A DNA stretch of 64,000 nt from Marsupella aquatica (taxonomy: Eukaryota > Plantae > Marchantiophyta): positions 374,751 to 438,750 of the forward strand of contig OZ316898.1 of NCBI GenBank assembly GCA_973895155.1, given 5' to 3'. The notes under the pieces are model-generated. The model was not told the origin of the DNA. It saw only the letters and a list, made by a program, of their open reading frames with translations, and made no database searches. Positions 3,016 through 54,315 of the stretch are shown in pieces (position 1 is the stretch's first letter; each line of letters starts with the position of its first letter). The translations under genes were made by a program, and so were the position numbers.

Positions 3016-3027
3016 GCTCTGATACCA
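3016..3027 (-). promoter_or_regulatory. Primer binding site (tRNA-iMet) of copia A
   Basis: Minus strand TGGTATCAGAGC, 2 nt after the LTR end CAACA. Confidence 0.93.
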
Positions 3028-3029
3028 AT

Positions 3030-16706: not shown

Positions 16707-16862
16707 CCTACTGGACCACAAAAACATATCATCTATGGTCACCCCGTATAACACAATGCAACCACAATCACTAGGCATCCATCCATACATCTGTGTTGCT
16801 TCAGAATTACTTTATTACACATCCTTCCCCTCACTAATGTCCATGCAAACAATTCACATTAC

Positions 16863-19800: not shown

Positions 19801-20594
19801 GCCTCGTACATGTTCTTGGGCAAAATATTACCATCTGGTAGCACAGTTGTTCGCAAGAATGCCAACAACTCAGAAACCAAAACGTTGGGGACATTGTGGT
19901 TGCCGCAAATGTTCAGGAACATGATGACAAATCCCAGTTTAGAACATTTGCTACCGGGGTACAAAGACTTCCTGCCTTCCTGTATTTGCAGGGGAGAGCC
20001 AAACATCCCATCATGCCCAGGGGTTTCCTGCCCTATCTCAAACTCATCAAGAGGCTCTTCGACAGGGGGCACACTTGCATCTGCAGCCGTATCCTCTTCG
20101 TTGTCCAGCCCGTCATGAAATGCATCCAAGTCTTGGAAGATGTCTCTCACCATCTCTTCCACATGAATTCCTTCGTCACGTGGTGCTGCCTGAGCACCAT
20201 CCCGTTGGAGAGCTGACAACCCACAGAGACCAGCTACAACATTTTCAAATGCACCAGGCAGAACCTCACTTGCCCGTCTTGCAGCATTGGCAGCATCAAA
20301 TTCTAACCTCCACTCCTCATCGAAAGAATCTTCCTCTGCAGGATCATTCCAAACTCGATGTCGTGGATCTCTTCCATGAACCGCGATATGCCGCCAAACC
20401 TCATTCAGACCCCTGGTACGGGATCCTTGGCAGATTGCACAAGGACATCTCATCCTACTGGCTCCTGAAAGTCTGGTTCGTAACCTTTCACGTTGCCAAA
20501 GCTTATTATCATGGCGTGATATCCTTGTGGGATGATGCAAAGGCAGTGCCTGTGCCCTGGGCTGGGTCTGGGGAGGGTGGTGACCAGGGTGCAT
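16863..20594 (-). pseudogene. CACTA TnpD transposase (Transposase_21, DUF4218, DUF4216), spliced, with one in-frame TAG at 17361-17363
   Basis: Motifs IHACPDGHVLF, RNVRLGLSLDGVNPF, YNLPPW, DYPA, DVMHIEKN, KSHDYH, FFDVMTHLLVH, WLYPLERYM and EPFVFPSQVEQAFF. Confidence 0.95.
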
Positions 20595-21027
20595 TGTAAC
20601 AGGCTGGGAGCTCTACAGTCATGGACAGCAGTGAACAAGGATGCCTAATGGTGGTATTTGTGTTCCATATATCCCTGACTGTATCTGCCAAAAGAGTTAA
20701 CATAACGTGTACTAAATTCTCACAAACCCTAAACCACCCCAAAAGAAAAAAACAGGTTCGCAAGTAGTGTACCTATTGTCAAGTGAATGACACAAAATTC
20801 CTAAATGTTGGAGGGTGTCACCACCTCCTCCGCTGTCCTCAAATGTACCGCCTCTGCATGTACGTTTATAGTGACACCCCCAGGCAGCAGGAAACAACAA
20901 TCCGCCAACAGTAAAATAAGCCCAACTGCCACCAACCATAACAAGGTACATTAGTTCAAAGATCACATTTATTTCAATGATCTGATTTATACAAAAAAAC
21001 TTGTGTCCAAATTGATGCTACTACTCC

Positions 21028-21900
21028 TCACTCTGATTCAAAATCGCTAATGACCCATTCCTCACTTGTTGTCTCATAGTCCTCTCTGTAAGGATCCTGA
21101 CCCTTCCGTGGCCAGGCCTCAAAAAGATCATAGTCCATTGGGTTTTGACGCTTCCCAGCTGCTACTGATTCCACAAGCCAAGCATATGAAACCACAAACA
21201 CATTATGGGACATGACATAAAAGCGAATGTCTCCCTTCCCAAACTTGCGGCAGGCTTTGGGATATGACTTAGTAATGACATGAGTGGTGTCCTCTGTTAT
21301 ATTCTCCTCCACTGTCCCACCTAGGTCAAGCACTGTGGACTTGTACACTTTGCACTTAACCTCTCCAATTCCCGCCTCCACAAATACCATGCTCAGCCCT
21401 TTTAGAATGGGGGTTGGTTGCTTCGTCTCCTCAGCCAACATACTCTTCAGCCTTGTAGAGCTCTGTCCTTTGTTGAGTACAGGTCCATATTGGAGATCAG
21501 CAAGCCGTGCCTTTGCTTCCCAGACTTCTTGTTCAGCCCAAGCTGATGCAGTAGCTTCTTCATCCTCCCACAACTCATATTGCTCAGTATCCTGTACAAT
21601 CTTATGTGCTATGGAATCTGTGATCCAAGAGGCCTCAACTACTTTTAGGCCTTGCTTAGTAATTGCAGAATTCATGTAGGACCATGACCACTTCTTTATC
21701 ATTGATAGCCATGTCCCTGCAACAACATGTGTAGTCTCTGGAGTGATGTCCTAAACTACAGTGCCATGGAGCTCAGAGAATCGTTTCTGTACAGTTGGCC
21801 AATGCACTTTGGTCAACCCATGCTGGCCATGGACCAAAATCGCTCTGACCCCTGTAAACACTGCTGGGTGGTCACACTTTCTACGTTTCCCAGGCTCCAT
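21028..21900 (-). pseudogene. Tandem BRCT-domain protein (~290 aa) with one in-frame TAG at 21751-21753
   Basis: ATG at 21900. Repeat 1: VFTGVRAILV..LHGTVV*DITPETTHVV..VVEASWITDSI. Repeat 2: LKGLSMVFV..LGGTVEENITEDTTHVI..VVSYAWLVESVAAGK. Confidence 0.8.
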
Positions 21901-23345: not shown

Positions 23346-25726
23346 GCTACTGCAATGAATTGGAATGGCCACACAAGGATGTAGAGCAGACATACTTTTG
23401 GTATGTTGAGCCCACACACAAACCTGATCCCCTAATACAATTGCTCCACCAACACCTCAATTTTAATTGTGGCTATGATTCACCAAAGGAGATCTGCAAC
23501 AACATTTCATGCATTTGAATCACATACAATAGTCGTGACATGTAAAACAGGCATTCTTCGAAGAGGATTGGTATGAAGCAGTGTCATAAGGGTTGAAATT
23601 TATACATCCTAAATAGGCTATGATAGTGGCTGAGACAAATAAGTGATGCATAAATCACATTTTACAGGTTATCACATGGCCCATTAATTCATTGAACGTT
23701 GCAATGTTCACCAGGTTAAAGCAATCATGAAAGCAGTCTTTCAATAGAGACTTTTATGCGAGTTTGCTAGCCTCCTAAATTAGGATATTTTGCTTAGTGC
23801 AGGCATAATAGGATATAAGTTATGTACTGTTGACCCTAAACCTTGGACCTCGGGGGTTTCACTTCCACAAAAATGACATATCACGTGCGACAAAGGATAG
23901 GGTCATTTTATTGGTTCTAAGGGAAGACTTAAGAATTTTTGTAGAAGAACAATAGGGTCTTTTAAATTCAATTTTGAGACTTATAAGAATATTAGGGTAT
24001 TTTTAATCCAATTTTTAGAATATTCCAAGAATATTCCAACTTTCTAGGGGTTAAAAAATTTAAAAAATTTCTTACATTTTAGGGGGTCCGAGGCCTAAAA
24101 ACATCGCAGGCGATGGGGAGGTCCCCATATAGTGAGACCCCCGAGCCCTGGACCCAAAATTGCTCATACATCAAAATTTTAAGTAAATATCCTCTGTGTT
24201 GAAGTCAGAGTGTTAAGCTATAGGTCAATGGTATCTGGTCTGTGCATGCGGTGTGACAAGTGGTCCTCTAGAGCATGTGATCCAAACATGTGTAGACACC
24301 AAAGTCACCGGTGGTGGGGTCTGGGAGGGCAGGACAAGTGACATCACCAGGCACACTGTAGGATGGCGAGTGGTTCTAGATGATACATTGTGCTCTATGC
24401 AAAAATTGGCATCCAAGAGAACGGTCATCCAATTCTGGGCCAGAAGCCCTACAGGCAGGACAATCATATTGGCAACTGTGTACACACCCTTGGCACCTAA
24501 TTTGTGGCGGGTCATGTACAAGAGACACAAATACCAAGGATGTCGGGAAGGGTACTGAAGCAGGTAGAGGCCGGCTGTAGTTGTTCCTGGAAACAACAGG
24601 GTACTCAAAGTACCATGCAGACTGAGCTAGAAGGATCCCAAGTCTGACATACTCAAGGCGCAACATCTCTGCCTTGCGTGCAAGTCGCACATGTTCAGCG
24701 TTGCGGGTCCTCACCATAAGTGTTGCTTTCGTTGTGATGTCCTCTGTTCACGTCCTTTGATGAGCAAGGTGAGCAGGAGGTCGACTTGCCTCGCCAACAG
24801 CAACCACCTAAACTAATCAGTTCCCACTCATTGTCTTGGTTCCAACTACAGGTCATAGTATACACATAGCATGAAACGTGCATAGTACATATTTGATTCT
24901 GAGTTTATGAGTTTCCTAAGACAAAGAGCTTGGTGATAAACCCATATTCTCGACGGACATGTATATCAATCATATTAAAATCCTGTTTTTTCATCCAGAA
25001 AGACCGAAAGTCTCACCTTGCAGGTTGCAGCAGAGAGAAAATTCACTGGTTGTCGTGTTGTGCAAGTGAACCTCCACTGATGCCCCCGGTGTAGCCCCTC
25101 AGATGCAAGTGACACTTACCAACTCCCAAGTTGCCTGGTCTAACAGAAAATGCTTATATCTTCATAACTTTATAGAGCAAGTACATGATCACATACTTCT
25201 GGATCTATTCATATTTGGAACTCTTGCCAACTACAACTCCCATTATGCACAAGCTCACATCAACAGAGAAAGATACAGAATGCATACTTACTATGGCTCT
25301 AAGCACCTTCACTACCTTGTTGAACCCAGTCCTGAAGTCTTTTCAACGTGTTTGTTGTGCTATCTCCTTTGGCACCCAACACCTTAGTCCTTGATGTAAC
25401 AGAATGCGATTTTACAAGTTAGATGCTTTGGAACCTTCTATGGTCTTAGCTGAATTGATGTCATCGTAAGTGGTGAAAGACAAGGAAGACGAAAGCTGGT
25501 TGAAGAGCTGTGGACAACACACTAGCATGAAGTGCTTCAACCAATCCACTGCCAAACGGAACTCTTACACAGTCACATTCTTTCAGTAAACAGAAACTCA
25601 GTCAAACTTCATAATCAAAGTACAGACTCTGAAGGACCAAAGGAGGATGTTGTGAGTTTCTCTGTTGTTTAATGTGTTACCCTTCTAGTTTCGAAGTTAG
25701 CAAATGCTGAATAATGTGTCTACCAG

Positions 25727-26066
25727 ATCTTCGAAAAGAAGCCCACCACAATTAAGAACTTCGGTATCTGGGTGAGGTATCAGAGTTGTACAGGTTATCC
25801 CAACATGTACAAGAAATATCGTGATACCACATTAAACAACCACACAGCAGATGTATGATGAGATGGCTTCTTGTCATAGAGTTTGGTTCCCTTGCATCCA
25901 GATCATCAAGACTACGACAGTCCCTGTCTCTCTGTGCAAGCGAGAAAGTACCAAGCAGTTCCATGATTCAAAGATCAAGTTCCCCTTGACGTACCGCAAG
26001 ATTCAACCTCCATCGCGAAAGCTAAAGACGACTTACAAGGCCACCAAGCCCAACACATTTGTTTGA
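25727..26066 (+). pseudogene. RPL18A: 60S ribosomal protein L18a (eL20) C-terminal exon fragment, frameshifted
   Basis: cag|[36 protein letters not shown]... then [55 protein letters not shown]. Confidence 0.9.
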
Positions 26067-26859
26067 GTAGTGCGGGTGCAGGTTCCCAATTTTGAAACAA
26101 TTTGGCTCATTTTATGTCCCGAGGGACTCCAGGAGTTTATGTATTGAGTTTCTAGGTCAAGATGCTTAATATAAGGAAATTCAATTATCACCTCGTTCCC
26201 AACTTCTATTAATTGAATATACACAAGCTGGAAGCAAGAAGACAAGCCACAATCTAGCATCTTAGCCAAACACAATCGTCCCGACAAAGCAAAACTCAGC
26301 TGGACAGAAGTCACTCGGATCCACAAAAAATTGAAGATTCACCTCCAAGCCGGAGGCCGATCACTTCAGTACAACAGCTTCTGGACGGAACAAACTCTGC
26401 TCAGCCCCACAGAAACACAAATGTTAAGGCTCCAAGTCAGAGCTCACAAACAGAAACTCAGATAAATAACATTCAAAATCTGTCCACGTTTGTGCAAAGT
26501 GTACATATTCATTCTTCTGGAATGAACACGCAATGCATACATCGCCTAGACACAGTCATTATAAATCATTGGGCAATTGGGGACCACTAAGCAGGTGTGT
26601 TCCTATTTCGAGGCTACAGGAAAGGATAGAGTGACACCAAACTGAAGAGTACACCAAAAGAAAAACAGCAAGAACCAAAGTCAATCATGTGTGGATAAAT
26701 TGCACATGGGAAGTTCCCCTGAAGAAGCACCAGTTGCTAACATTGTCACCCGAACCACACCCAGTTTATTACCTCAATGTCTTCAGCCTCAATATCCAAT
26801 CCTCAGCCCCCTGGTGCTTCCGTGTTTGTTCTGAAAATTTCTGTGATGAAATAATTATT

Positions 26860-27112
26860 TGTCACACCATTCTGAGTAGTGTAGTAGTATATCGTGCTAT
26901 TAGAGTATGTATGTTTGGTATGAGTGCTATTGGAGCCGATAAGGTTCTGTCAGGTTTGTGTGAGAGGGTACTTCTCACTTGTGAGGCATTGAAAGGTCAT
27001 CTTTCAATGTTGAGCCTTGGAGAGAGAGGAGCTTGAGTGTGGCTATGGTGGCTGTGAGCTCCGCTTGTGTAATGTGGATTCCTTGAGTAGTGCAAGGTGC
27101 GTTGGCTTGACA
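26860..27112 (+). repeat. Candidate 5' LTR (TGTCA...TGACA, 253 bp)
   Basis: 5-bp terminal inverted repeats; a second copy at 3526-3774 starts at exactly the same base; no canonical TGG PBS follows. Confidence 0.6.
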
Positions 27113-27459
27113 TACGTGTGTGATCGGATCGGTGCGGGATTGATGGGGTATTGTTGACCGAGATCGTTGTGCCGATTGTATGGAGATTACATTGAAAGAT
27201 CACATTCGAAATCTGTTGTACGGACTGTGCGGACAGAAGTTCGATTGATTGAGTTGTCGACGGTTCGTGGTAGCTCGGATCGTGTGTTGTTATCGAACAG
27301 ATCGTTGGTATCTTGACCTATATCGTTGTTGTCCGATCGGCTTGCTTCCCAATCGATGTACAGATCTGTGATTGGTGACAAGTTTTGAGTTGGAGGTCGA
27401 TTGATGATTCGTGGAGGAAAGCGAATGTTGAGTAGATGTTGGACAGTGGAAGTCGATCC

Positions 27460-27549
27460 GTGAGGCTTCAGATCCGATTGCCGACTACTGTGAGGCTTCA
27501 GATCTGATTGTCGGCTACTGTGGGGCTTCAGATCTGATTGCCGGCTATT
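27460..27549. repeat. Three copies of a 30-bp tandem repeat GTGAGGCTTCAGATC(C/T)GATTGCCGACTACT in the gypsy leader
   Basis: Read directly. Confidence 0.9.
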
Positions 27550-27789
27550 GTTGGACGATGTTGGCAAGGCGCAGGTGAAGCGACGGCTCTTTTCCTGAAG
27601 GAACGGAGCTGCCAATGCCCCGTGCGACGGTATCATCATTTCAGTGAAAGAAACGAGGGTCAAAGGTGTTGAATCAAGCTGCTGCCAGTTCTGTGGAAGG
27701 GCTGCGTTTTTCATGAAGGAAATCGACAGTTTTTGGGAGCTTTTCGTGAAGGAAGTAGTCATTTTTGGGGTCAGGTGTGAGGCGCACGA

Positions 27790-27996
27790 GGTCACCCATC
27801 CCGAAAGTGCTCGCGCGAGGCGACGCGTGAGGTCACCCATCCCGAAAGTGCTCCCAACCGTGAGCGCGAAGTCACTCATCGCGAGCGCAGGCAGGCGCGA
27901 GGTCGAGGTCACCCATCCCGGGGCTATTCCGGGCCGTGAGCGCGAGGGGAGGCACAAGGTCGAGCGCGAGGAAGTCACCCATCCCGGGGCTATTCC
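27790..27996. repeat. CpG-rich cluster of GTCACCCATCCCG motifs (4 exact, 1-2 degenerate) in the gypsy leader
   Basis: Read directly. Confidence 0.88.
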
Positions 27997-30900
27997 CAGC
28001 CGCGAGCGCTTAACTGGCAAGTTCTCATCCCACCTTGTGTACACACAAGCTTTGACAACTTGTTGTTTAGATTCAAGCGCTAGGGGGCTTTATACACTTC
28101 CTGGTTTGTTTAGAGGCCTATTCTAGGCCAAATCAGAGGCTGTTTGAGGGTTTTTGATACTTCTGAGTCCATCTAGACTCACAGATTGAACCAATTTTGC
28201 CTTGGTTCTCATCTATAACATTGGAGTGCCATTGTGAAGCCTATTATGAAGGCTCTTCCTTGAACCTTATGCACATTGTCATATTGATTTGCATTTGCTT
28301 TTGTGTGGAGAGTTGAATGGTATCCATTCTTGTTTCTGGATCCTCTTCACACATGTTTCCTGTTTATGCGCCATGTTAGTTTCGTGTGGGCGCTTGATTC
28401 CATAGGAGTGATCCGGGTTTGCAACTGGACATTCTAGTGTGCTGTGTATTTCTCTCTTGGTGATGTTGGAGTGATGCCCAACACACTATGGTGAGTGCTT
28501 GTGGTGCTGACAGGGATAGATTGCCCTTAGGGTTAGCACATAGATTAGGTTAGGGTTGGTCACCACGGATTCTTCTGGTGCTGCTGGATTACCCGATGGA
28601 CGACGGACCGGTTTCACTCGGAGTAGGGCACAGTTTCGGCCAGCGGCATTGGTAGCAGTCAGCAGTGCAGCTTCAGACAGTGATTCTGATGAGGACTCAG
28701 TGACCAGTTCTCCTCATCATCACGTGGTTGCACCTTTGTTGTGGGATATGGACGAGATGTACGGGGCTACAAAGGGCCCACGACGATACTCTGGTGCAGT
28801 TGGCACAATTGATCTGGATGACTTCATCCAGGAGTTTGATACGTGGTGCGATATGCAGACATTGCGTAATGTCACGTTGTTTACCCCTTTCATGGCATGG
28901 AAGGGATTATTCCAGCATTTGGAGGGGCCACCCATGAATGACTACCATGAGTTTCGGAAGGCTCATTTGGTTGAGATTGAGGCATGGAGGCAGCATTGGT
29001 CGCCTAATTACGTGTCCATCACCTATGGCACTAGTGCGGCTGCCCAACCAATTGCCACAGCTGCTGCTTCTTCTAGCAGCACTAGCCAGAGTGGCACACC
29101 ATCCACCACCAACACTCCAGCAGCATCCACCACTACTCCTGCCGGTGTGATTGTGACAGGAACTGGAGTTGCGCCAGCATTTAATCTTGTGGTGGAATTC
29201 TTTGAGGTACTGAAGTAGAACTATCAGGGTGTGAGAACTGATAAGTTGAAGGGTCTTCAGGAGTTCCAACGCAAGACTGGAGAGAGCCTACGTGAGGCAT
29301 ACACACGTATGCGCAGATTGATCACTGTCACCAAGGGAGTGACAGAGGCTCAGGCAGTCCAGTTTTGGTATGCAATTCTGGACAGAGAATTGCGACGCAG
29401 AGTGAGAGATGTCACTCTGCTTAGGGATTCAGATCCCACATTAGCAGTTGTTTTCACCCTTTCGGAGCGCATTGAGCTCAATATGGTGAATGAGAAGGTG
29501 GTGACTTCCGGATTTGCCAAGGAAGCACCAAAGGCTGCATCTACATCCACACCACAGCCTACTGCACGGAAGAGCCAGAGGGAGAAGCCTACTGCACGAG
29601 AGTCTACCAGCCAGAGACCTATGCCCTCTTATGCTGGACAGCAGTCAGGATGTTGGACCTGTGGTGGGGATCATGCACAGAGATATTGTCCAGATCATAG
29701 AGGATCAGGGGGAGCATCAGCGCCTGATCAGCGACAGTGTGATCATTGTGGAGCTCCTGGACACACCAAGGATAGGTGTTTCTCACTCCACCCTGAGTTA
29801 CGGAGAGGAGGATCCCGTACACATGATCAGGGAAGAGGAGGTAGAGGTGGTGGACGTGGTCGTGGCATGCCACATGCAGGGAGACAGGGAGGTGACGCTG
29901 CCCCTGCTATAACCATAGATCCAAAGGATGCTAAGATTGCTCAATTGGAGCAACAACTAGCTGCCATGGCTAGTTCCCAGGTGAGACCTAATTCTGGTGA
30001 TGGGGCATCTACATCCTATGGACCTTCCACATCCCATGGTCCTTCCACATCTTATGGAGCTGATGGAGACCTTGCCACCATGGGATTCATGTGTGGCACT
30101 GCACATATTGATGCATCAGCAGCTTTGACACGTGGGGCAGCCAAAGCTCTTGAGCCCCGAGGAGCAGTAGTGGAGTTAGATCCACAAAGGGGGGATGCAC
30201 GTCGGCAGACAAAGCTTCCTCAGTCTTTTACATTGTCAGAGACAATTCAGACTGCCTCTATGAACCCGGTTCGGACAAACCCTGATGTGGGTAAGTTGGC
30301 AGAATCAGGTAGTGATGCAGCAGGGATGACATGTACCTTGCTGGGGGCGGCTACTGCCATAGTACGCACCCCATTATTTTCAGCGACAGACATGCTGAAC
30401 TTGGGAGTTGGTCCTGCAGAAGTGTTCAGATTGGCAGCTACACTCTGTGAGGACACTCCAGTGGTTGCTTCCCATGTAGAAGCAACTTGTAGTGTTGATG
30501 CAGTGAAGACCATGCCACCTACTGCTACTAGTGAGACATGGCATGCAGCAGCAGCGAGGTTGGTGGATTTACCAGCACGCCCTGCATTTGAGAGGACTAG
30601 GTTTAAACCTAGTGTTGTGTCATTGGATAATCGGAGTGGTATCTTCCGATTAGTTGGGCCTTCTGGAGCAGTATACCAGCCAGAGAGAGTGTTACTGGAT
30701 ACTGGTGCTCAGCCCTTGATGTTGGGGAAGTCTGCCATACGTGGATTGGGACTGCGTCCAGAGGATTTGGAGGATTGTCCCTTTCCCATTCAGACTTCAT
30801 TGGGGGGACCTACACCTACACAGCATATCACCAGGAGACCACTTGATTTGAGGATTCAGGAAGGTCATACCACAGATACAGGCGCGAGCTATTCTGACTA

Positions 30901-31394
30901 AGGCAGAGTCATATGATGTGTTGGTGGGATGTACAGTGCTCTACCCCATGGGATTTATTCTTGATTTTTGGGAGGAATCAGTGTCATATAGACCTGATTG
31001 GCAATCAGGAGATGCTCGATTGAGCAAATTGCCAGTGAGATTTAGTGGACCTGTGGGAGGCTCTAAATCCACACCATTGTCTTTGGCAGCATTCAGTGGT
31101 GTAATTGCTGGACCTGATGATTTGATTGAGGGTAATGCGCATGCAGCCGATGTTCCACCATTGGAGGAGTCTCATGAGGAGCACATCATGCGAGGGTTAC
31201 CTGTTGGCAGTGTTGTGCCACCAGTGTGGGGCACTGCACAAGCCTTGCCACAGGCAGCAGCACGATTGGTACATGATGCATGGCGTCATGCTTTTACACC
31301 ACAGTCAGGAGTAGAGCAGTCTCTTGCAGATGGACCTGTGACTCTTTCACCATTGGATACCACTCCTATTGCTTGGCAATATCCACCGGAGGGT

Positions 31395-32340
31395 ATTTGT
31401 TTGTTGGATCTTTTTGGTGGGATTAGCACTGGATTGGCTGCTATTCTTCAGGCAGGAATTCCTATGCGTCGTTATTTATATGTGGAGATAGATGAGACAG
31501 CACGGAGGGTCTCATTGCAACATGTGGCTATGTTGGTGGATAGATATCCACAATTGCTACCAGTGGATGCTGTTCGTGGTTATCAGCATGCACTACCTGC
31601 TGATATTTCATTGTTGGGGGCGGATCATCTACATCGTGTTGGCCCCATTGATTTGGTGATTGCTGGTTGGCCATGTCAGGGCCAATCTAGAGCTGGCGTT
31701 GGGCATGGACTTCATGATCCACGCTCTGCATTATTTTGGGAGATGTTACGGGTGCTGCGTCACCTCCAGTTACATCAGACACAGTCTCCAGCATACATTT
31801 TGGAGAATGTGCCATTGTTAGGTGATGATCGTAGTCGGATTGTTGCCAGTGTTCACCAGGTGAGGTCTTGGATTGGACCTGCTGTGTTATTGGATGCTGC
31901 ACGTGTGGGTTCTCGTGCACATCGTCCACGCTTATGGTGGACTAATTTGATCCCATGTGAGGTGCTGAAGCGCGCATTTGACAGCATTCCACGCTCACCA
32001 GTCTTAGTGGTGGATGATATTTTGGATCCAGGGCGTCGTGCACAGGGTGTGACCCAACCTGATAGACCTCCATTGGCAATGGTCAATGCAGTTGGGTGCC
32101 CACATTGTGCATTACCCACTCTTGTAAGCCACTCTGCTTCATATGCATTCAGAGCAGGTGGCCCTGGACTTGTATGGGACACAGCTCTCCAGCAGTTAGT
32201 GGAGCCTACTGCTGATGAGGGAGAGCGTGCTATGGGATTTTTGACTAGCACCACTGCAGTTGCCTCTGTGTCAGAGGGTTTGCGGCGCCAGGTTCTTGGT
32301 CAAGCAATGGATTTGAATTGTTTGACTTGGATTATCAGCT
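31395..32340 (+). other. C5-cytosine DNA methyltransferase domain (DNMT3-like, canonical motif order) within the polyprotein
   Basis: Motif I LDLFGG (DLFGG 31407-31421), II VEID, III ADI, IV AGWPCQG (PCQ 31671-31679), VI ILENV (ENV 31803-31811), VIII AHRPRLWWTNL, IX ERAMGF, X RRQVLGQAM; no stop inside the domain. Confidence 0.93.
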
Positions 32341-35300
32341 TGGGAGTAGCTGAACAGTTGCGGATGCGCTCTGCCGGAATTACTGATTGTCCCTTGGTGA
32401 GCTTGCGGTCCACTGAGACAGTATTGACCACAGCTGGGGGCGAGCAGACAGTCCATGGCCCTATGACAGGATTGGCAGCTGGACAGATTGTTGAGCAAGA
32501 AGAGACTGCTCAATCTACTGCTAAATAGCAATCATCGGCTATCTCTTCTACCCTACAAAGAGATATTAGGGATTTGGTGGAGAGTTGGGAACCACAGCTT
32601 GGCCCTAAGTTAACAGGGGAGGAGAGACGTCGCATGCATCGATTCCTGAAGAGTTATTGGAATTGTTTTGCATTCAGCATGAAGGATTTGGGGACATTGA
32701 AGGGCCCTGGTATTCAGATTGAATTGGCTAGTGATGCGCCAATCTTTCGTAGACCATACCGTTATAGTGACATGGAGAGAGCTCTGATTCAAAGCAGAAC
32801 TCAAGATTTGTTGGAGGCTGGATTGGTGGAGATTTCATATGGGGAGTATGCATCTGCCACAGTGATGCCAGCCAAGAAGGATGTGCATGGCAATTACACA
32901 GATAGGCGCATGTGTGGTGATTACAGACCTATTAATTGCCAGACAAAATCTGATCGATATGCCATGCCCACACCTGAGGAGATCTTTGATGCTGTGGGGC
33001 ATGCAAAGGTTTTCAGTTCATTGGATCTGAGGGCAGGATACCATCAGCTTCCAATTAGGCATGCTGACAGGTCCAAGACAGCATTCTGGGGGATTGATTC
33101 TTATAGCAAAGATCGTTTGTATCAATGGTTATTCTTACCATTTGGGTTGAAGAATGCACCAGCTGAGTTCCAGAGAGTCATGGATCGAATCCTTGCAGGT
33201 TTGGATTTTGTCAGATGTTATATTGATGATATTTTGGTCTATTCTTCTACTGTGGAAGAACATCAGCAGCACTTGCAGACTGTGTTGGAGAGATTGAGAG
33301 CACATGGGTTGAAGCTCCATCCTAGCAAGTGTAAGTTCTTCCAAGACCAGATTGAGTATTTGGGCCACACCATATACCCAGGGGGATTGGGTGTACAGCA
33401 GACTAAAGTGGAGGCCATTACACAGATTCCTTGTCCTACTGATGTGAGTAGAGTTCGTGCATTCTTGGGATTGGCGAGCTACTACAGGAGGTATGTTAAA
33501 GGATTTAGCCAGCTTGCTAAACCTTTGACCATACTCACTAAGTTGGATCAGGAATGGATTTTGGGTGATGACCAGGAGCATGCCTTTCAGGAGTTGAAGC
33601 AAAGGTTGGCATCATCCCCTATTTTGAGAAGACCCATTTCAGGCAGACCATTTCAGCTACACACTGATTGGAGTGGAGTAGGACTTGGAGCAGTGCTGAC
33701 TCAGAAGGATGATGAGGGGAATGAGTTTGTTGTGGCTTATGCCAGTAGATCAAACAATTCAACAGAGGCTAAGTATAGCTCTTATGAGGGAGAGTGTTTG
33801 GTAGCAGTGTGGGCTGTTGCACACTTTCGTTGCTACTTGTTTGGTAACCCCTTCACCTTGATCACTGATCATCAGCCTCTTAAGTGGTTAATAGAGTCTG
33901 ACAAGCTTACAGGGAAGCTTGCACGATGGGCATTGTTGTTACAGGAGTATGATTTCCAGGTGGTGCATAGGCCTGGAAAAGTGAACTTGGATGCAGATGG
34001 ATTAAGCCGCAATCCATGTACCAGTCAGCAGGATGAGACTGGAGCCAGATGGCATGATGAGTCAGATAAGGAGATGGTGCCAGGATGGCATGCATCTGCC
34101 TTTCTTTGTTGGGTGCCAGCATACAGTGGATCTGTGGACTCTACTTCATTGGATGGAGTGGGTGATGAGTCTTCAGATGTGGATGTTGGTGAGGTAACTT
34201 CTGGACAACAAGATATTCACAATGATGTGAGAGTGTTGGAATATCTGCGCAATAGTTCTATTGTTGGCAGTGTTGATGCCAAGGAACGTGACAGGATTCT
34301 ACAGAGAGCCAAGAGGTTTCGATGGGAGGGAAACCATCTTTTGAGAGTACTGCATGATGGTAGGTTGTTGGTGGTACCAAAACCATCACAACGAGTACAT
34401 TTGGTGCGACATGCGCACGAGGAGTTGGGTCACTTTGGTGTGAAGTGCACTTACAGCTTGCTGCAGACGCAGTATTGGTGGCGTGGTATGCACACTCATG
34501 TCCAGCAGTTGATAGCTAAGTGTGTGGTATGTGACAGAGTGAGAGCATCATTTAATGCTCCCACTCCCCAGTTGCACCCATTACCGATCATGGGTTTGGG
34601 ATATCGTTGGAGTTTGGATTTTGCTGGTCCATTACCTCTTACCCAACGTCATAATCGGTATGTTTTGGTCATGGTGGAGCACTTCTCCAAGTGGATTGAG
34701 CTAGTGGCGTTGCCAGATAAAGCCAGTGGAGGAGTTGCTGCTACATTTTTGGATCGTGTACTCAGTCATTTTGGAGCACCAGCTGAGGTGTTGACTGATC
34801 AGGGAACTGAGTTCCATGGAGAGTTTGAGAGTTTGTGTGAACAAGCTCTGATCATCCTGAGGCAGATGGATTAGCTGAGAGAGTTGTGCAAACTGTGAAG
34901 AGAGGATTGCGTAAGTATGGCTTGCAGGTTGGTCATCTGGGAGATTGGGATCTCCAGCTACCTTGGTTAGCTATGGGCTACCGTTTCAGTCGGCAAGCAT
35001 CACTTGCATCCTTCTCACCCTACTTTTTGCTCTATGGTAGAGAGCCAGATTTGCCAGCAGCTATTCATCGTCATGCTGCACCAGTTGTGAACTTGGATGA
35101 TCCTGATGTTTGGGTCAAGGTGTGTTCAGAAAGAGCACGGGTATTTCAGAGAGTGATGCCCATGGCTTTTGACAACCTTGCCATTGCCCAACATCGTGAT
35201 ACTTTGAGGTATGCCACTATTCGTGGAGGAGGTTACCGTGCAAGCATTCGACGATTTCATCCTAGTGATTATGTTTATTTGCAGCAGACAGCACCCACGA

Positions 35301-35488
35301 CACTTGATGTGACCGCAGGCCGGACAATCTTACGTGTGCGTGAAGTGTTGCCTTCTGGTGTCCTGATGTTGGAGGGACGCGATGGTATGGTTTGGAAGGA
35401 TCATGTGCGCAACTGTGCACCATGTCACCTTCCCAACATTGATGGTACAGTAGATCCAAGCTTGGCACATGTTCGTGTTGGCTTGAAA

Positions 35489-35623
35489 TGTATGTTGTGT
35501 GGATCTGCTCAGGGAGCAGCTACTATGTTGATTTGTGATAAGTGTTCTAGAGGATGGCACATGTCATGTTTGACACCACCATTGCAGGTGATTCCTAGTG
35601 GATCATGGTTGTGTCCTCAGTGT
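35489..35623 (+). other. PHD finger at the integrase C-terminus
   Basis: C4HC3 pattern CMLC..MLICDKCSRGWHMSCLTPPLQVIPSGSWLCPQC. Confidence 0.92.
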
Positions 35624-35793
35624 CGGTGAAGCCGACTAGTTATCATTTGTGTTCTCTTGGCAGATATGGATTGCAGGTAGGTGATCGATGGGGCTCACTT
35701 GCACCCGGCCTCCTGATCTTCACACCTAAAAAGGTGTATATCAACCTTGTAGAACTCATGGCTAGCTAGAGTTAGGGGACCTTACTCCCAGCT

Positions 35794-35800
35794 AGGGGGG
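35794..35800 (+). promoter_or_regulatory. Polypurine tract of the gypsy element
   Basis: AGGGGGG, then CGAT, then TG at 35805; ~165 nt after the polyprotein stop. Confidence 0.7.
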
Positions 35801-36990
35801 CGATTGTGGGTTTTGGACATGTGTGGACATGAGTTCCACTTGTATTCCATTCTCTTGTATTTGTGATGTGGCAGTGTGACTATGTCTGGATGTATGTGAC
35901 AAGCGATGTATGTTGTGTAGCGATATGTATGCGCACGACATATTCAATACATTCAATAGCAAAGAGAACTCAATCACAAAAGAAAAATAGTTAGTGTGAA
36001 TGCTAATTTCTCAACACTTAACTAAATTCAAACCACCAATTCAAGTAGTAAGTTTCAAAAACTTGCCTTTACATGAAGAGAAACCAATTGGCCATGCATG
36101 TTACTAAAGCAATAAACAAATAATTAGGCTCAACCCCGGGCTCAACACACAGGCAAACTACTCGAAACATGCTGCTGAGAAGTAGCATTTTTTGAATGTC
36201 AGACTATGTGTAAGTGCCATGATCGTGCTCCTACGTTTCACAAGGAGGGCTGGCCCGAAAGGGAGAAGCAACAATGTGGAGTCTATACACGTAGCACAAA
36301 TCCCAGTTTAGAAGGGTGGATGAAGTTCAGACAAGAGTTCAGAACTTGCCATTTGAGATTGCCAATCTGAACTTCACATTCAGACAGGACTTCATCCAGT
36401 TCAGGAGTTCAGATAGGAGTTTAGACAATCTGAAGAGGACTTTGGACTTGAATGAGGGACAGCGTGGCCATATAGTTATCCTTGTGGCCTTCAGCTGCGT
36501 GTCTCAGGCTGAATTTCACTTTCCAGTTTCGAGAGTTCTGAAGGTCTAGTTTTAGTAACTTCCTCCTGACTCGACTTGGGAGCATTCTCCCTATTTGCTA
36601 GCTTGTAGTTAGCTTTGACTCCTGTGAGCTTAGTTGACGACCCTCTTGAGATATTAACAATTAGAACAAACACAAGTTGTCAAGACAGATTCCACCGGAG
36701 CAAAAAGTCCAAAATCAGGTGAAAGAAAACCTAAGGAAAGTCCATAAGAACGAAAGTAGGAAGGCAGGTGCACGGGCCACCGAGAAAAGTAAAGGATGCA
36801 TGTGATTAGTGGGGAGGGATCTTAGCAAAAACAGGGGAAAGCAAGGGAACTTGCTGCTAAAATCAGCTGAACGATTGCACGGTTCCTATAAATTTAGTGG
36901 ACCTTAAGGCCGTCTGTTCACCCCCCCACCCCATTGCCAGAGCACGGGGCACAAGGCATGTTCTGATACAGGGAGGAGCAAAATAGTCAT

Positions 36991-41338: not shown

Positions 41339-44300
41339 TCAAACCTGGTCCTCATCCTCTCCTCCATTTGACACAATAATAATGTCAGGTTTTTCCGAGA
41401 TAATGAAACGGGACCGTGGCACATACGGTATAACAACTGACCACTCTGGGTCTAGTGGGTACAGAATATAGAAACACTGCTCAAGGTGACTTGGGAATGT
41501 AAATGGTTCAGATGTTTGCCAATGAGATGGTTGAAAGCTAGTTGCTGATGTCTTCAGTCGAGTAAACCCACACTCATCAAGAAGTACCGTGTGATTATCA
41601 CCAACCAGGTGAATTTTGAACCACTTACACTTGAAGACATACTCTTCAAATTTGGAATCGGCATCATAGGATATGATCAAGATCTCCTCAATCTTCCCAT
41701 AGTGAGGCACCACATCTCTGATCACATTAGTGTCATGACGGCTACTTTGTGAATCTTGCATGAACTGCCCTTGAACTCCACAATCAAAAGTTCTTCCCCT
41801 CTTCTCATCAAGGTCAGAAATCCTGAAATGCCTCCCTTGTGTCCACATTGTTGTTCTGGTCTGAACAAGTCTTAAAGGACCATGAACAATTGTTCGAACC
41901 TCAGGAGTCATATCTGGAAAATGTGATACATTCTCACCTTGGGCCACCATAGCATCCAACTGAAGTACTTTCTCCTTCATATACTCAAGGAACTTTGGAA
42001 AGATCCTTGGGCGACGACTCTCCCTCTTTGCATCCTCATAAAACTCTCTCCAATCTTCCATCACATTGCTGTTACTCAACATGAAAGTACTAACCTGTGT
42101 CAACTCCACTGCGGTTAGTAAGCGTGTTTTTTTTGCACATGTTAAACGGTCCTCCTCCACTTCCCTCTCTTCCATCCAAGTGCGTGGACAACTAGGATCA
42201 ATGGTAGCTAAGATGTTACTACAATAAAACATACTCTCAGCTGCCAAGTATCCAGTTGCCATGCTCCCCTCCACTCGTGCACGGTTCCGTACACAAGCCT
42301 TTAACACGGCCATATACCTTTTCAGCCAATACATCCACCTACAATGCACCAGACCGGCAATGGCAACCTCCCTCACAAGATGAACGAGAAGATGCACCTG
42401 ACAATCAAAGAAGGAAAGAGGGAGGGCCTTCTCCAACTTGCATACCACCTCTGCTGCCAATACCTCCATCCATGGTATCTCTTCTTCATATATTTCCTTT
42501 GAGCATATCCATCTCAACAAAGTGCCCAGTGACCAAAGGGCGTCTTGCACTTCTTCACTCCCCAAACCTATGATTGCCACAGGAAGTATATGTTGTAGTA
42601 AACGATGATAGTCATGTGTCTTGAGATACATTGGCCATTTATGACTGTCCTCCATCCCAAAAGCCTTACGTAGATTGGCACCATAGCCTGTAGGAAACCG
42701 CATCTGCCCTATGCGTTGTCGAAACTCTCTTCTTTCACCAACACTCAAAACCCATGGAGCTGAAGGACGATGTTCCATCCCTGTGGATTCATCAACTGTT
42801 ATCCATACATCTGGATGTCGTTCTAGATCCTGGCATGCCTCCCTAAAATTAATGTTCTTTTCCCCATAAAAGTGCTTGATCAAAGCCTTCCCAACATTTC
42901 CCTCTATATGCATGGGGTCTAACAAGTGATGAATCTTCAACTCAGGCCAATAGGGCAAAGTGGCCACTATACTCCACCTTGTCAATCCACTACCATCAAA
43001 TCCCATGGCATCTTCAGGGTCTGCCACGCTATCAACTATGGATTTCCAATACAAAAATGTTGTGCGGTCAGGTATCTCACGCTCATCACCATTGATCATG
43101 TCAAAGTCTAAAAATAAGAGGGGGTTAGACCTCATGTGATGCCCAAGTGGAAGAAACTTGGTATGACCAAGGTAGATTATCTTGTGCAGCCATTTTGAGT
43201 ACTTGGCCATATCGTGAAGGCTTGGACCACAAGTGGAGCATGCCTTGTACCCTTGAGTTTGGAACCCAGAAACAAACCCAAACCCTGCTCACAAAATAAC
43301 ATTCTTAATTAGAGTCAAAGGAATTGAAAAGTTCATGTATGTAGAATTAAAGAGGGACTTCCTTCCAAACAAACTTGATCTCCAATACATGAAAAAAATA
43401 CAAATCCATACCACTCACCTGGATAGTCATGCATGGTCCACATAATGATTCCCTTCAATTGGAAGACACGTGGTAACCCTCCTGTAGTTGTCCGACCATC
43501 ATATGCCCATACACCCCCCCATAATTTATGGAGTTCCCCAACCAAGAGCGCCAAGTAGGTGTCCATGTTTTTTACCTTAGATGGACCTGGGATAATCAAT
43601 GATAGCAATAAGAATCCCTTTTTCATGGACAACCATGGGGGAAGGTTGTAATTCATAACAACCACCGGCCAAACCGAAGTAGGGCGCCCTTTCCCTCCAA
43701 GGGAGTGTGGGCTCACCCCATCTGATGCCAACCCCAACCTCACATGACGAGGGTCACGTGCAAACTCTGGCCATTATGACTCCACATGCTTGTGATCAGG
43801 GGAATCAACTGGCAACCGCATGACGCCGGCCTCTGATCAATGTGTCTTATGCCATACCATCAATTCTGCCAAGTCAGAACATCGGTACATGTGCAACAAT
43901 CGAGGAATAATAGGAAACCAACGAACAACTTTTCTAGGCACCTTTGAGGTCAACATGTTGGTTTCATATCGAGGCTCTTGACAAATTGGACACTCAGTTG
44001 CGCTGGCATTGATCTCATGATAGAGAATGCAGTCATTCACACAAGCATGAATGATATGGTATTCCATGCCAATGGATGATAGAACCCTCTTTGCCTTCTT
44101 CCAAGTTCCTGGCAACACATTTTCACTGGGTAACAAGAGATCATGGCAAATTTGCAAACAAATCCGATAGTAGCGCATTGCTTGCCTTGTGTTTTGCTTG
44201 AAGATTCATCAATGCCAAGATGGCAGATAGTCTATTCAAACGAGCACCCCCATAAATAGGTGTTCTAGCATGTGCCTCAGCTTCTTCCCATTGTTTTTGT

Positions 44301-47893: not shown

Positions 47894-48269
47894 TGAGTCA
47901 ATCTCAGCTGCCCCAGCTGAGATGCGCAAAAAAAAAAAAATTCGCATTTTTTTTGGGCGCCCCAACTTGGCGGCCTCTCTAAGATGACGTGGCGACTGAT
48001 ATCAGGTCGACTGATGGAAAACACTGATAACTAATGATGTAACTTTACTCTTGCGAAGGGAATAGATTCGGAAGTGCCTCGCAAGTTGCTAGACTATTTG
48101 CGAGGGCGCGGGCTTCGCAGTTTCCCATGCGTATGTCATCGCAAACCCATTTTTGAACGGCGTAAACATCGGCGGGAGCTTGCATTCGGGCTCATTTCAG
48201 TTTTTGAGCAAGACGAGAAGGGCCGGGGCGCGCGCGACAGTACGAGGGAGACTGTGACAGAGGGGAGCT

Positions 48270-50284
48270 ATGGCTACCGGTGAGGGGAGTGGAGGGCAAG
48301 GTGGTAGTGGTAGTGGTAGTGGCAATGGGGGAAATCCAGAGAAAGAGAAGAATGCCTGGGCAGACTTAGTGGCCCAACATCTCAGTGCTGCACAATTGGG
48401 AGAAGTGAATCTCAATTCTCCAGCAGGGCTTGCCTCTTTGAGTGCCATTCTTGGACAGGTTTTGCAAACTGGGATTGTAGCAGGACAAGCTACTAGAGAG
48501 GGGGAGGAGAGGGCCGTAGCTGAAGAGAAGGCTAGAGAGAAAAAAAGGAAGAGAGAGGAAAGAACTAAGTCGGGAGTTGCCTCTCCTCAAGCCCTAGAGA
48601 AGCAGAAGAGAAGAGAGGAGAGAGATTCAATTCAAAAACAGAGGGAGGAGCAACGTCAGAAAGAGGAAGCAAGAAAAAAACTTCCATTCATTGCCTTGGA
48701 GACGAGTGGGACTCCAACTGAGCTAGCGTATGCAGGGGCTAAGAGCACAATCAAACAGATTATCACAAGCAATTTCTCACGAGGCATGCAGTGGGGGAAG
48801 ATTGAGAAGGCAGAGCGAAAGAGGGTCATCAACCAAATCAAGGATGCATTTCGCAATGGGCCTGACATAGATGAGCAATGGTTGGCAGATAAGATTTCAA
48901 AATCTATGTCTCAAATGCGATACCATGACAGGATGAAGATTAGAGCCCACCTGAAAGACTTGAGATCATACAGGAACTTGCGCAGACCCCTCCACTTCAC
49001 CAAGGACATCTGGAATTCATTTTACAAGATTGAGGTGCAAATTAAGGCAGCTCATGAGTTGGAAGAGTGGAAGGGCAATCTACATCGAGCCTTGAAATCA
49101 AAGGAGGCCGGGAAGCTCCCCCCTGACCATGACCTGAAGCCACTTGAGCAGAAGGTAGCTGAGATGCAGAAGGTGGCCGACCAGGAGGGAAAGCCACCCA
49201 AGCGTTTCACAGATGCAGCCAAACGAGTGAAATCCACCCCCAATCTAGTCCACAAGTTGGGTCAAGGCGGGCTCCCCGGCCTCAAGTCACACTTTGTGAG
49301 TGCCTCTTGCTCCTCCCTAACCTCTCTATTCCTTTCAGAGTTGTGCAATGCAAGTGAATGACATCCCCGAATGTTCTTGCTGTTGTGCATGCTTGCTTGG
49401 TTACTAGTTTAGGGCAACTCTGACACTTAGAATTTTTGGCAAATTTTTAAAAACTCTCGGGAACACAGTTTGCAAAGGTGTTGCGATGCGCATTTGTTCG
49501 CAAACCCCTCGCAAAGTCTATCATGGACTTTTTCCATTTCATTTTTCCGATGCCTTTGCGAACAAATGCGCATTGCAAACTCCATCGCAACGCCTTCGCA
49601 AAAAATGTGGTTCGCAAGTTGCCATGCTTATAGGTTCGCAAATTTGAATTTTTAAAATTTTTTTGGGTCATGTTTTGTAGTTGAGGATTTAGGCGTCACT
49701 TGTGGCTATAGGGTATGCTTAAGGAAAAAATTAACCAATTTTAATTGGTTTTATGCATGGCAGTATTGGAGGTACAAAAGGAAGATATCAAAAAAGCATA
49801 TTGAGGTGGCGATAGAGCACGGACGAAAGTACCTCTTTGCGATGGTAGATGCCGAGTTGGCTACTGTAAGTGTCTAAGTGTGAACCATATGATTAGCATG
49901 CGAACATTGTGAGTGACCCTTTATGTCTTGCGGAAACTAATGATATGTAATGGATGCAGGATTCGGATGAGCCTGAGGGGTTGGGTGCTGATGTGAGCAG
50001 TAGTGATGACGATGAGGGGGCTACTCCTGGTACTAGTTGTGCTCGGGGGGAGTAGTTGTGAGGTAGGTTCTTCCCACCGTGGTAGTGGTGGTAGTCATGT
50101 GTCATCAACACACGTTGATGACCAGGGGGAGGAGGAGGACCCTGAGGATGAGGAGGAGGAGCAGGAGGGGCAGGAGGAGCCAGAGGAGCAGCAGGAGCAG
50201 GAGCGCCGACGGCCATCACGCACCCGTCACCAACAGGATCCCCGGAAGGATAAGGGCAAGAAGCCAGCCAAGAAGCCAACCTAG
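48270..50284 (+). CDS. TnpA-like/ORF2 gene of CACTA-2 (3 exons; probable frameshift in the last exon)
   Basis: Exons 48270-49295, 49764-49865 and 49960-50284 have phase-0 GT-AG junctions; charged coiled coil, HKLGQGG motif and acidic tail. Confidence 0.6.
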
Positions 50285-51093
50285 AGGAGCCGCAAGAGCC
50301 CATTCTAGTTATTTTGTAGAGATACATGCATGAGAGTGACTTGTCATGCTGGAGCTTAGGGTAGGAAGAGGCAGCATAGGTTTAGAAGGGCGGACCTAGC
50401 ATCAGATATTTCCCCCCTCTTGTCCATGTATAGGGTCCTTTGAAGCCCTATCATTTTGTTCATGCTTTTCCATTTTATAAAACAACAATTTTGCCTTCCA
50501 CATTGGGTCCCAAGGAAAACCCCTCGCAAATAATGTATTGAATCCTCTGTGATCATAATTTTGCGAACCCTTTAAGAACTCATTCCCATTGCACAATATA
50601 AACCCCAAGGTGTCGCACTTTTTGAGTCAATTAACTTCAGAACTTTAGATCCAAATATGTCGGGTTTTTGTGATACTTCTAGGATGGCACTTTCCTAATC
50701 GGAACCGTTCACAAACTTCTGAAATCACCGGTATCGCTCTTTGTCATACAATCCCCATCAAAACAATTGAACCAGTATCTTTCGCAAATATGATGTGATG
50801 GTAAATCCTTCTCAAATATCGACACCCGCGCGGGATGTGTGCATGTATGTTTGCAAACCTTATGCGACGTATAATGGATTGCACAAGTATTGAATCTTGC
50901 GAACCTCTCAGCTTCGCAGTTTGCCATGGTGTTGAGATGCCGTTGCGATGGTCCGCGTGCAAAGTTATTAGGTTCGCAAAGTGCGAAGGTGGTACGATGC
51001 GCGTATGTTCGCAATGGCCAGAATTATGAAAATCAGGGGCTTGTTAGTTGCGATGAGATTGTCTTCGCAAAACCGGCCGATAGTGTTGTAGTG

Positions 51094-52342
51094 CACAGTG
51101 CCATCAAACATTTGAATCTTTACAGACCCAATACCCTTAATTTGACAAGAGTGATCATTTCCCATCAGAACTAAACCGTTTGAAACAGAGTAAGAACTGA
51201 AAAACTCACGAATGTAACAAATGTGAAAAGAGCAAGCACAATCAAGAATCCACATGTCATATGATTTCCTAGATGACGTGCAGCACAAGGCATGTACCTC
51301 ATAACACGTACTCATCATTGAGTAAATCAACGTCTTCATCAGTCCTAGCCACATTTATCGATGAAGATTCAGCTGTCTTTCCCTTACAGTCTCACTTGAA
51401 GCTAGTGTCCCACTTTGTTGCACTTCCAACATGTCACCTGCCTTGTCTCCGGGGACTTGCCCCTAGACTTAGATCTGGATTTAGATCTAAAATGGGTTCT
51501 ACAGTCCCCAGTTGGTCACTGCATACTCCTCCCACGGTTAACATTGAGGGCAACACTAGATGATGAAGGTTGTGACGTGATGTGCATCTTCTGTTGAAGA
51601 TTATCAGTTAGCAAAGAACTCACCACCTCATTGTATGAGATGGTATTCCTATCACAATGCAACAACACTCGTGATAAGGACTGGTAAGATGGAGGCAATG
51701 AATTGAGAAGTTGCAGAGCCTTTGTCTCATCATTCAATTCCTCCCCAAGGTTTTCCAAGTCAACAACCATGTTGTTGAAAGCATCCACATGGTCCTACAA
51801 CTTCGTATCGGTTTCCTTCATCCTGAAACTCATCAATTTGTAGGAAGTGTAGAGCTGGTTCGACAATTCCTTGCGGTGATACTTGCTCTGCAACTCAGCA
51901 AATAAGGACATGCAATCCTTATGTGCACCCAACTGCTTGATGATGAGAGACATGAGATAGAGTGTAACGCACCACACTCCCTGCTCATGCATGCGGTCCC
52001 ATTGTTTCTCATCAACATTGTCTTCCTGAGGTCTCAACAGTTGGCCTATCCCCAAAGCATAGAGCACTCCCTTCACCTGCTTCTCTCAGAGTAAGTAGTC
52101 AGAGCGCCCATCATACTTCATGACTTCATACTTGGGTCCCCCAAGCTTGAACGTCCCCATCTTCTTCTTTTGCACTACTGTTAGCTCCGGTAGTAGAATA
52201 GCTTCCTCCACCACACGCGCACCGGTGATGGTATCGGTGTCACGTGCTCTTCCTCCTGCTCCTCTCTCCCCACCTCAAACCGTCGTGGTGATTCTTGTGC
52301 TTCAAGTTTGACATCTTCAAAAATCTCCTCCGAATCACTCAT
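51094..52342 (-). pseudogene. copia B gag-protease, degraded
   Basis: Near-identical peptides to ORFs 835-1875 and 271-789, with extra stops and frameshifts. Confidence 0.9.
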
Positions 52343-53956: not shown

Positions 53957-54315
53957 GCTCTGATACCAATTGTTGAGCATAGAAAATAATCGCAACGGTA
54001 AGCCCATGAACCATCCAACGCACAAGAGTCAACACAGAGAGATACATGGTTCACCTCCACATGAGGCTACGTCCACGGGAACACACAAGAGCTTTACTGC
54101 ACTCTAGGCCAACCGACCATACCAAACATCCACAGCACAAGCTCTCCCTATCTCTCAATTGGCTTTGTAACAATAAGCCTAAGTTCCCACTCTCCAAGCA
54201 AACACTGCTTGGGTATAGAGTGTGCACAACATGACTAAACTAATTAAGTCTACGTCTAAGGTTAGCCTTAACTATGATACAATCGTTACTCTAGACCTAA
54301 GAGTAAATCCTAATA
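53957..54315 (-). repeat. PBS (tRNA-iMet) and 5' LTR of copia B
   Basis: GCTCTGATACCA AT TGTTGAGCATAG..., homologous to 3016-3414. Confidence 0.85.

Follow-up and report, generated by a model that had tools for sequence, protein, structure and literature searches.

The element at 26860-35940 of the window (the whole stretch of 64,000 nucleotides of Marsupella aquatica DNA analysed here) is by its sequence a Gypsy-DNMT3 retrotransposon of the KnitGypsy-Dnmt3 type. The family to which it belongs is old, is found in green plants and has a PHD finger at the end of its integrase. The balance of our data tips towards a model where this finger anchors the integration complex at the N-terminal tip of histone H3. 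The first-pass annotation had read the finger and the DNA methyltransferase of the same element as a coupled reader and writer converging on the logic of animal DNMT3; our analysis indicates that the two are probably not part of one machine and work separately.

Self-comparison detected no LTR pair in the window, and the ends of the element were defined through related loci and sibling contigs. The empty site is assembled in another run, where a contig passes directly from 26855 to 35941, the two sides sharing 4 letters; the left flank contig stops at 26859 and the right one begins at 35941. The bounds of terminal repeat A are given by sibling-contig joints (35940 to 26859 and 27188 to 35803) and by direct reading in two related loci, L014 and L042. 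The long 5' leader holds a 41-nt GC-rich repeat in four copies (27788-28011). Zinc-knuckle-like Cys/His motifs can be read by eye in gag, and the protease has a below-cutoff Pfam match to Asp_protease_2 (E=0.0043). The gag region is damaged by a premature stop at 29216-29218, which is missing from most sibling contigs, and by a frameshift near 30880. Integrase is split over two frames, with its core in the ORF at 32529-34874 and its C-terminal half in the ORF at 34841-35629; since homologues span both as a single protein, this copy is frameshifted near 34853. With one premature stop and two frameshifts the copy is dead. Its CpG observed/expected ratio of 0.45 equals that of the flanks (0.48 and 0.51) and says nothing on self-methylation. 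A second fragment of the same family lies at 3526-4072 and covers repeat A with some of the 5' leader, at 80% identity.

Features of the Gypsy-DNMT3 copy, in window positions, with the basis of each assignment
Feature	Position	Strand	Basis
Ty3/gypsy (Gypsy-DNMT3) retrotransposon, whole copy, TG...CA ends, broken	26860..35940	+	empty-site and flank contigs
Target-site duplication, left, TATT	26856..26859	+	4 bp
Target-site duplication, right, TATT	35941..35944	+	4 bp
Terminal repeat A, 5' end; sibling copies have A also after repeat B	26860..27188	+	
gag and aspartic protease (protease about 30680-30826)	28544..30901	+	ORFs, Pfam
DNMT3-like C5 cytosine methyltransferase domain	31392..32351	+	Pfam, structure match, motifs
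In-frame stop, TAG-CAA-TCA context, predicted read-through, between Gag-PR-DNMT and RT-RH-IN-PHD	32526..32534	+	conserved in relatives
Reverse transcriptase, RNase H, integrase zinc finger and catalytic core	32529..34874	+	Pfam RVT_1, RT_RNaseH, Integrase_H2C2, rve
Integrase remainder, frameshifted: long helix, beta-barrel C-terminal domain, linker	34841..35488	+	homologues, predicted structure
C4HC3 PHD finger and stop codon	35489..35629	+	Pfam, predicted structure, conservation
Polypurine tract	35790..35802	+	G run before repeat B kept in related loci
Terminal repeat B, ends in conserved CACGACA; single B in this copy, B-NN-A-B in many siblings	35803..35940	+	

The translation of 35489-35626 reads C-x2-C-x11-C-x2-C-x4-H-x2-C-x14-C-x2-C, followed by one residue and the TGA stop at 35627-35629, and covers the full Pfam PHD profile (1-47/47, E=2.3e-11). 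It has the features that define the PHD fold, namely the C4HC3 ligands and a conserved Trp ahead of the last Cys pair. In an AlphaFold model the finger reaches pLDDT 81-93, and Foldseek superposes it on the PHDs of DPF2/DPF3, MOZ, UHRF1, BHC80 and ATXR5, with a fit of 0.5-0.9 Å in the best matches of 45-48 columns and 2.1 Å for ATXR5. Among solved structures its nearest PHDs belong to CHD4, DPF2/3, ATXR5, KDM5A/B, BHC80 and UHRF1, and a search of the ESM Atlas returned unnamed PHD clusters only. Pfam, predicted fold and homologue alignment therefore agree with the first-pass annotation that a complete C4HC3 PHD finger is the last domain of integrase. Its placing at the extreme C-terminus holds for streptophyte-type copies but not throughout: among the matches listed, the finger lies within 20 aa of the protein end in 90 of the 175 PHD-pattern-matched aligned homologues, and the protein continues past it in the other 85. 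In chlorophyte-type proteins (P0170, P0198, P0222 and others) a Tudor-like domain often follows the PHD, with a Pfam match to PTM_DIR17_Tudor in P0198 (E=8.4e-5) and a conserved block in 72 tails. The beta-barrel C-terminal domain (about 35234-35422) is presumably SH3/Tudor-like. Ahead of the PHD linker, an H-x2-N-C-A-P-C-H-L-P motif (35402-35434, integrase residues 188-198; C195 98%, H196 94%) is a possible extra zinc site.

A search with the integrase-PHD region, split into two classes by length, yielded 421 relatives in one and 234 in the other, from which the best 120 of each were examined. The matches listed include Calypogeia, Marchantia, Sphagnum, Klebsormidium, Pleodorina and Haematococcus, the closest named ones being liverwort proteins at about 80% identity, in keeping with a bryophyte or other seed-free plant as the likely host. 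The alignment passes through the finger in 201 of the 240 homologues listed, from bryophytes to chlorophytes, and 38 of the remaining 39 end no more than 24 residues from the end of the match. All eight zinc ligands are present in 176 of those 201 aligned homologues, again among the matches listed. As this search was anchored on the PHD itself, a DNMT-anchored search was added to offset the bias. Comparison of the near-intact loci L017 and L019 indicates purifying selection on the PHD (dN 0.069, dS 1.58), with values of dN 0.159 and dS 1.42 for the DNMT and dN 0.055 and dS 1.97 for the reverse transcriptase. Far from being peculiar to this copy, the finger is kept across green-plant relatives, and it is real, conserved and probably functional. 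Three relatives (P0358, P0300 and P0285) have a complete integrase C-terminal domain with no PHD after it, so the finger may be dispensable.

The ATXR5 PHD provides a template for what the finger may read, as it holds the amine of H3 A1 with P60/G62, R2 with D41/D44 and K4 with backbone carbonyls (PMC5499861). In a register inferred from the ungapped match, P252/G254 of our finger correspond to the A1 pocket P60/G62 of ATXR5 and D233 to D41; D233 and M229 likewise correspond to UHRF1 D334/M332 (PMC3214078). Among the matches listed, the P-x-G-x-W columns of the A1 pocket are conserved in most aligned homologues (P252 in 195/201, G254 in 178/201, W256 in 188/201), as are the R2-contact column D233 (190/201) and M229 (178/201), and the finger thus keeps residues typical of H3-tail binding. 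In the same listed matches the column of the second R2-binding Asp (ATXR5 D44, UHRF1 D337; here S236) has an acidic residue in only 6/201. Where a K4-binding Asp would sit, at the second position ahead of the first Cys, an acidic residue occurs in 1/201, and the neighbouring upstream position is Asp/Glu in 62/201. At the position that we take to hold the cage Trp of H3K4me3 readers, two ahead of the His ligand, Trp is found in 1/201 and Gly in 189/201 of these matches. For the UHRF1 PHD the first Asp is described as essential and the second as adding ninefold (PMC3214078). Given the rarity of the second R2 Asp and of the K4 Asp, the finger may bind with low affinity and discriminate poorly at K4. 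It is likely an H3-tip reader, with a modest predicted affinity and a predicted preference for unmethylated K4 that is weak to moderate.

In the model we prefer, the PHD would bind H3 A1 and R2 and, having no cage, could not read H3K4me3 in that way. It would then favour nucleosomes free of the active-promoter mark, and insertion would be biased to silent, repeat-rich chromatin, as with chromodomains. This copy sits among repeats, with CACTA and copia remains in the window, a single insertion being an anecdote. The finger may alternatively, and in our view rather less probably, be a mark-blind tether that binds the H3 tip whatever the state of K4, or a non-histone module, raising the efficiency of integration without steering it to sites. 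The lack of the K4-binding Asp and of the second R2 Asp points this way, as do the tolerance of K4me3 by the UHRF1 PHD (PMC3214078) and the five target duplications (TATT, ACTA, TGTT, AAGG and CATA), which have no common sequence. However, ATXR5 tells K4me0 by backbone carbonyls alone (PMC5499861), and it is to ATXR5 that our finger aligns without a gap.

The methyltransferase gene noted in the first-pass annotation is real and DNMT3-like, matching Pfam PF00145 (E=9.6e-11) and having DNMT3A as its nearest solved structure (E=3e-12). Catalytic motifs I, IV (PC), VI (ENV), VIII and X are all there in this copy, and motif strings retain the catalytic Cys and EN in 37/38 DNMT homologues. The Pleodorina DNMT is missing the catalytic Cys. 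Co-occurrence of PHD and DNMT, a check that the same annotation had put forward, proved strong. The metagenome set comprised 80 loci, of which 45 were uninformative; 34 of the 35 informative ones carry DNMT, and 29, falling into 19 of 43 clusters at 95% identity, show both domains. The DNMT-anchored search returned 83 protein matches: 17 carry DNMT, integrase and PHD in one ORF, as does one Marchantia gene model, 2 have no PHD at the end of the C-terminal domain, 4 stop earlier, 1 has another integrase type, and 24 are Gag-DNMT ORFs that end 0-162 aa past the DNMT match.

The two domains do not keep a fixed arrangement. In 24 of 52 proteins DNMT comes after RNase H and before integrase and shares one ORF with integrase-PHD; these belong to a chlorophyte-type clade, to which Pleodorina is assigned by tree and Haematococcus by domain order. 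Within it P0210, P0213 and P0216 keep the PHD and have no DNMT in that slot, and DNMT is found without PHD in the three relatives named above (P0358, P0300 and P0285). DNMT lies within the Pol ORF in P0137, P0140 and P0217, whereas the bryophyte-type lineage has instead a stop between DNMT and reverse transcriptase. Going by these sequences, the PHD stays with integrase while DNMT shifts position within the family. Deletion derivatives that keep DNMT and integrase-PHD and are without reverse transcriptase and RNase H were also observed (L006 3672-6348, L007, L050/L051/L054 and P0122, Marchantia Mp_7g09570); they may be random deletions or, for P0122, perhaps a gene-model artefact. DNMT-like domains are also present in copia-type proteins (Closterium, Tetraselmis) and in an unrelated SH3_Tf2-integrase gypsy (P0315, P0316 and P0317).

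A stop followed by CAR-YY stands between DNMT and reverse transcriptase in 24/29 loci, compared with 2.2% of background 100-nt windows, and its recurrence at the same place shows that the stop is not decay. CAR YYA is a plant read-through signal known from TMV (PMC2754532). The exact CARYYA is present in 14/24 stop contexts and CAA-CCC in the other 10; as ATG comes next in the CAA-CCC contexts inspected, reinitiation is possible as an alternative to read-through. In L019 an ORF1 of 1369 codons is followed by the stop and then by an in-frame Pol of 1047 codons. Such an organisation likely means that DNMT is made at Gag levels and the PHD only on read-through Pol. The methyltransferase would thereby be produced together with Gag-protease, in excess of Pol, would be cut free inside the particle, and might then act on the element's own cDNA or new copy with no need of the PHD.

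A role of the PHD in guiding the element's own methyltransferase on chromatin, or in gating it allosterically, like the ADD in DNMT3A, we consider improbable. Such gating would fit the co-occurrence of the domains (34/35 informative loci with DNMT and 29 with both; 17 single-ORF DNMT-anchored proteins with PHD versus 2 without), the intact catalytic residues of 37/38 homologues, and the DNMT directly before integrase in 24 chlorophyte-type proteins. The ADD prefers K4me0, and a PHD of this class is expected to share that preference. However, reverse transcriptase, RNase H and integrase together with the conserved stop separate the domains in the bryophyte-type lineage, DNMT occupies two positions in the family with the PHD always at integrase, each domain is found alone in the proteins listed above, and a retroelement polyprotein is expected to be cleaved by its own protease. 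In animal DNMT3 the ADD sits beside the catalytic domain on one chain, and a reader adjoining the catalytic domain in this manner was not found in the element. The proposed convergence on DNMT3 logic is not supported. It is very improbable that this PHD recognises H3K4me3 and directs insertion to promoters, or that it arose in this copy only, by chance or by fusion with a host gene. K4me3 is the best-known ligand of PHD fingers, and several of these ORFs are annotated in Marchantia as if they were ordinary PHD-domain genes; conservation nevertheless largely refutes both readings, with the cage Trp all but absent among the matches listed and the fusion present in 201/240 listed homologues from bryophytes to chlorophytes, nearly all others being cut short.

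As first noticed, the PHD occupies the position that the chromodomain has in chromoviruses, after the integrase C-terminal domain. No Pfam Chromo match was found in the ORFs of the window or in any of the 28/28 family proteins scanned. Other gypsy elements for phylogeny were supplied by a search of cluster representatives with RT-RNase H, and trees were built with FastTree (193 rows) and as an IQ-TREE quick tree (41 rows, midpoint root); in both, the family stands apart from those elements. The 18 chosen family rows form one side of a branch with SH-aLRT 99 in the quick tree, and the only two chromodomain proteins among 26 scanned, P0445 and P0353, both fall outside the family clade. With two anchors and a midpoint root, the trees show no nesting within chromodomain elements, rather than a firm sister group. 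A chromovirus with its chromodomain swapped for a PHD was rejected, as the two chromodomain-bearing proteins identified lie outside the family clade. The Phygy/Selgy non-chromoviruses of REXdb, which have a 4-bp duplication (NCGN in Phygy), a tRNA primer site and no extra domain, were likewise set aside: the length of the duplication fits, but NCGN is found in 0/5 and extra domains are present. No 'PHD' for Selgy or a Selaginella clade was found in PMC6317226 or PMC2864245. The nearest outside relative in the RT tree, P0462, carries a Dam adenine methyltransferase before the reverse transcriptase, and its PHD follows RNase H and precedes integrase.

The ends of the element are more unusual than its PHD. 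TG...CA ends and 4-bp duplications are shared by all five copies compared, of which L014 (1679-10805) and L042 (49-10659) have the layout A...PPT-B-NN-A-B, and this copy, L006 and L009 the layout A...B. The B-NN-A junction is present in 26/60 loci with enough sequence, the others ending with B and then flank (18) or having no B end (16); 11 more loci were too short. The spacer is two bases in every case and purine-pyrimidine in 25/26, giving a near-palindromic CA-NN-TG. Siblings of this copy include contigs with a B-A joint and contigs with an A-B joint, and the form A-B-A...B was not seen upstream of gag in 12/12 loci. This suggests that the true LTR is B-NN-A and that integrase may cut circular cDNA at this junction. 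Insertions of the form A...B would then come from one-LTR circles and those of the form A...B-A-B from two-LTR circles; later recombination between the two Bs is another possible source of A...B. Taken together, the parts would describe a green-plant-wide, self-silencing gypsy lineage in which DNMT3, packed at Gag-like levels by way of a leaky stop, pre-methylates the cDNA, integrase cuts a circle at CA-NN-TG instead of using the ends of linear cDNA, and the PHD docks the complex on H3K4-unmethylated nucleosomes, a composite that we regard as doubtful. If true, it would be a DDE retroelement with a circular intermediate.

Elsewhere in the window, a frameshifted, apparently intronless ribosomal protein L18a-like fragment at 25715-26063 (Pfam E=2.8e-4, below the cutoff) is probably a processed pseudogene. 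CACTA/En-Spm remains lie on the minus strand at 14501-21750 and 41339-43288, and the ORF at 21028-21750, adjoining the CACTA transposase, encodes a BRCT domain (Pfam E=5.7e-11). Two related copia copies, about 90% identical, occupy 271-3095 and 51093-54036, with another copia fragment at 55121-55822. Long open frames with no Pfam match are found at 48258-49361 (+, 367 codons) and 61130-63256 (-, 708 codons).

The PHD may represent a second histone-reader solution, beside the chromodomain, to the choice of chromatin by LTR-type elements. Marchantia relatives at 80% identity bring the targeting idea within reach of a model plant for which chromatin maps are already available, and many Marchantia gene models named 'PHD-domain' or 'DNMT' are pieces of this element. 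Through the conserved stop the element would control the stoichiometry of the DNMT3 that it carries, a point relevant to what such transposon-borne enzymes do. Circle integration, for its part, could be tested naturally on the split ends with their 2-nt palindromic junction.

The closest known system is the streptophyte KnitGypsy-Dnmt3, a gypsy element with a DNMT3-like domain described in K. nitens (de Mendoza et al. 2018, PMC5890265); the name Gypsy-DNMT3 is used in a preprint (bioRxiv 10.64898/2026.05.21.726589). Both KnitGypsy-Dnmt3 and our element have the order PR-RT-RH-IN and a DNMT3-like domain, and the DIRS-like split repeats of our family are also described in the legend of Fig. 4c of PMC5890265. 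K. nitens KFL_010570010 and KFL_015960010 match our integrase-PHD at 50-54%, PHD included; no K. nitens DNMT or reverse transcriptase is among the named matches, and the comparison with that species rests on the integrase-PHD proteins. According to PMC5890265 the DNMT belongs to the Pol ORF and is confined to K. nitens, whereas here it is on the Gag-PR ORF, set off by the conserved stop, in a family with members from bryophytes to chlorophytes. The term 'PHD' is absent from the text and supplements of that paper as examined, although its figure may draw one. Its authors proposed cDNA self-methylation by such enzymes, and describe an expression of the K. nitens DNMT in yeast that gave no methylation as inconclusive. 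The family is thus already known, but how widely it occurs, its PHD, its read-through stop and its integration ends seem to have been little described: the names of the family turned up in just two papers, and no earlier account of the PHD, the read-through stop, the B-NN-A junction or the target duplication in Gypsy-DNMT3 was found in the openly accessible text searched.

Chromoviruses such as MAGGY share with our element a histone-reader module after the integrase C-terminal domain and the same proposed tethering role. They differ in having a chromodomain where this family has a PHD, whose predicted ligand is the H3 tip and not methylated K9, in belonging to a separate RT clade, and in carrying two full LTRs in place of split repeats. 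EpiLTRs are LTR-type elements that join a chromatin reader to a DNA methyltransferase, combining, as the preprint describes them, a chromodomain with DAM and a DNMT4-related DNMT (bioRxiv 10.64898/2026.05.21.726589), whereas our element combines a PHD with a DNMT3-like enzyme and has no DAM. PHD fingers in retroelements are called widespread in parts of the literature (PMC6673714, PMC8557442, bioRxiv 2021.11.30.470311). They recur as an accessory domain in CR1-like LINEs, Chlamydomonas REM1, Chlamys Penelope-like elements and cnidarian PYGO-type fusions, and the accounts consulted hold no report of a PHD at the integrase end together with DNMT3. In REM1 the PHD is reportedly on a separate antisense ORF. 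Both PHD-bearing retroelements and reader-plus-writer elements are, then, already published.

The ADD is said to occur in animal DNMT3s only (PMC12344493). Animal DNMT3A/B resemble our element in their DNMT3-like catalytic domain and in a reader predicted to prefer K4-unmethylated H3. In our element, however, this reader is a canonical PHD and not an ADD, and it lies about 1,000 codons downstream, on integrase and past a stop codon.
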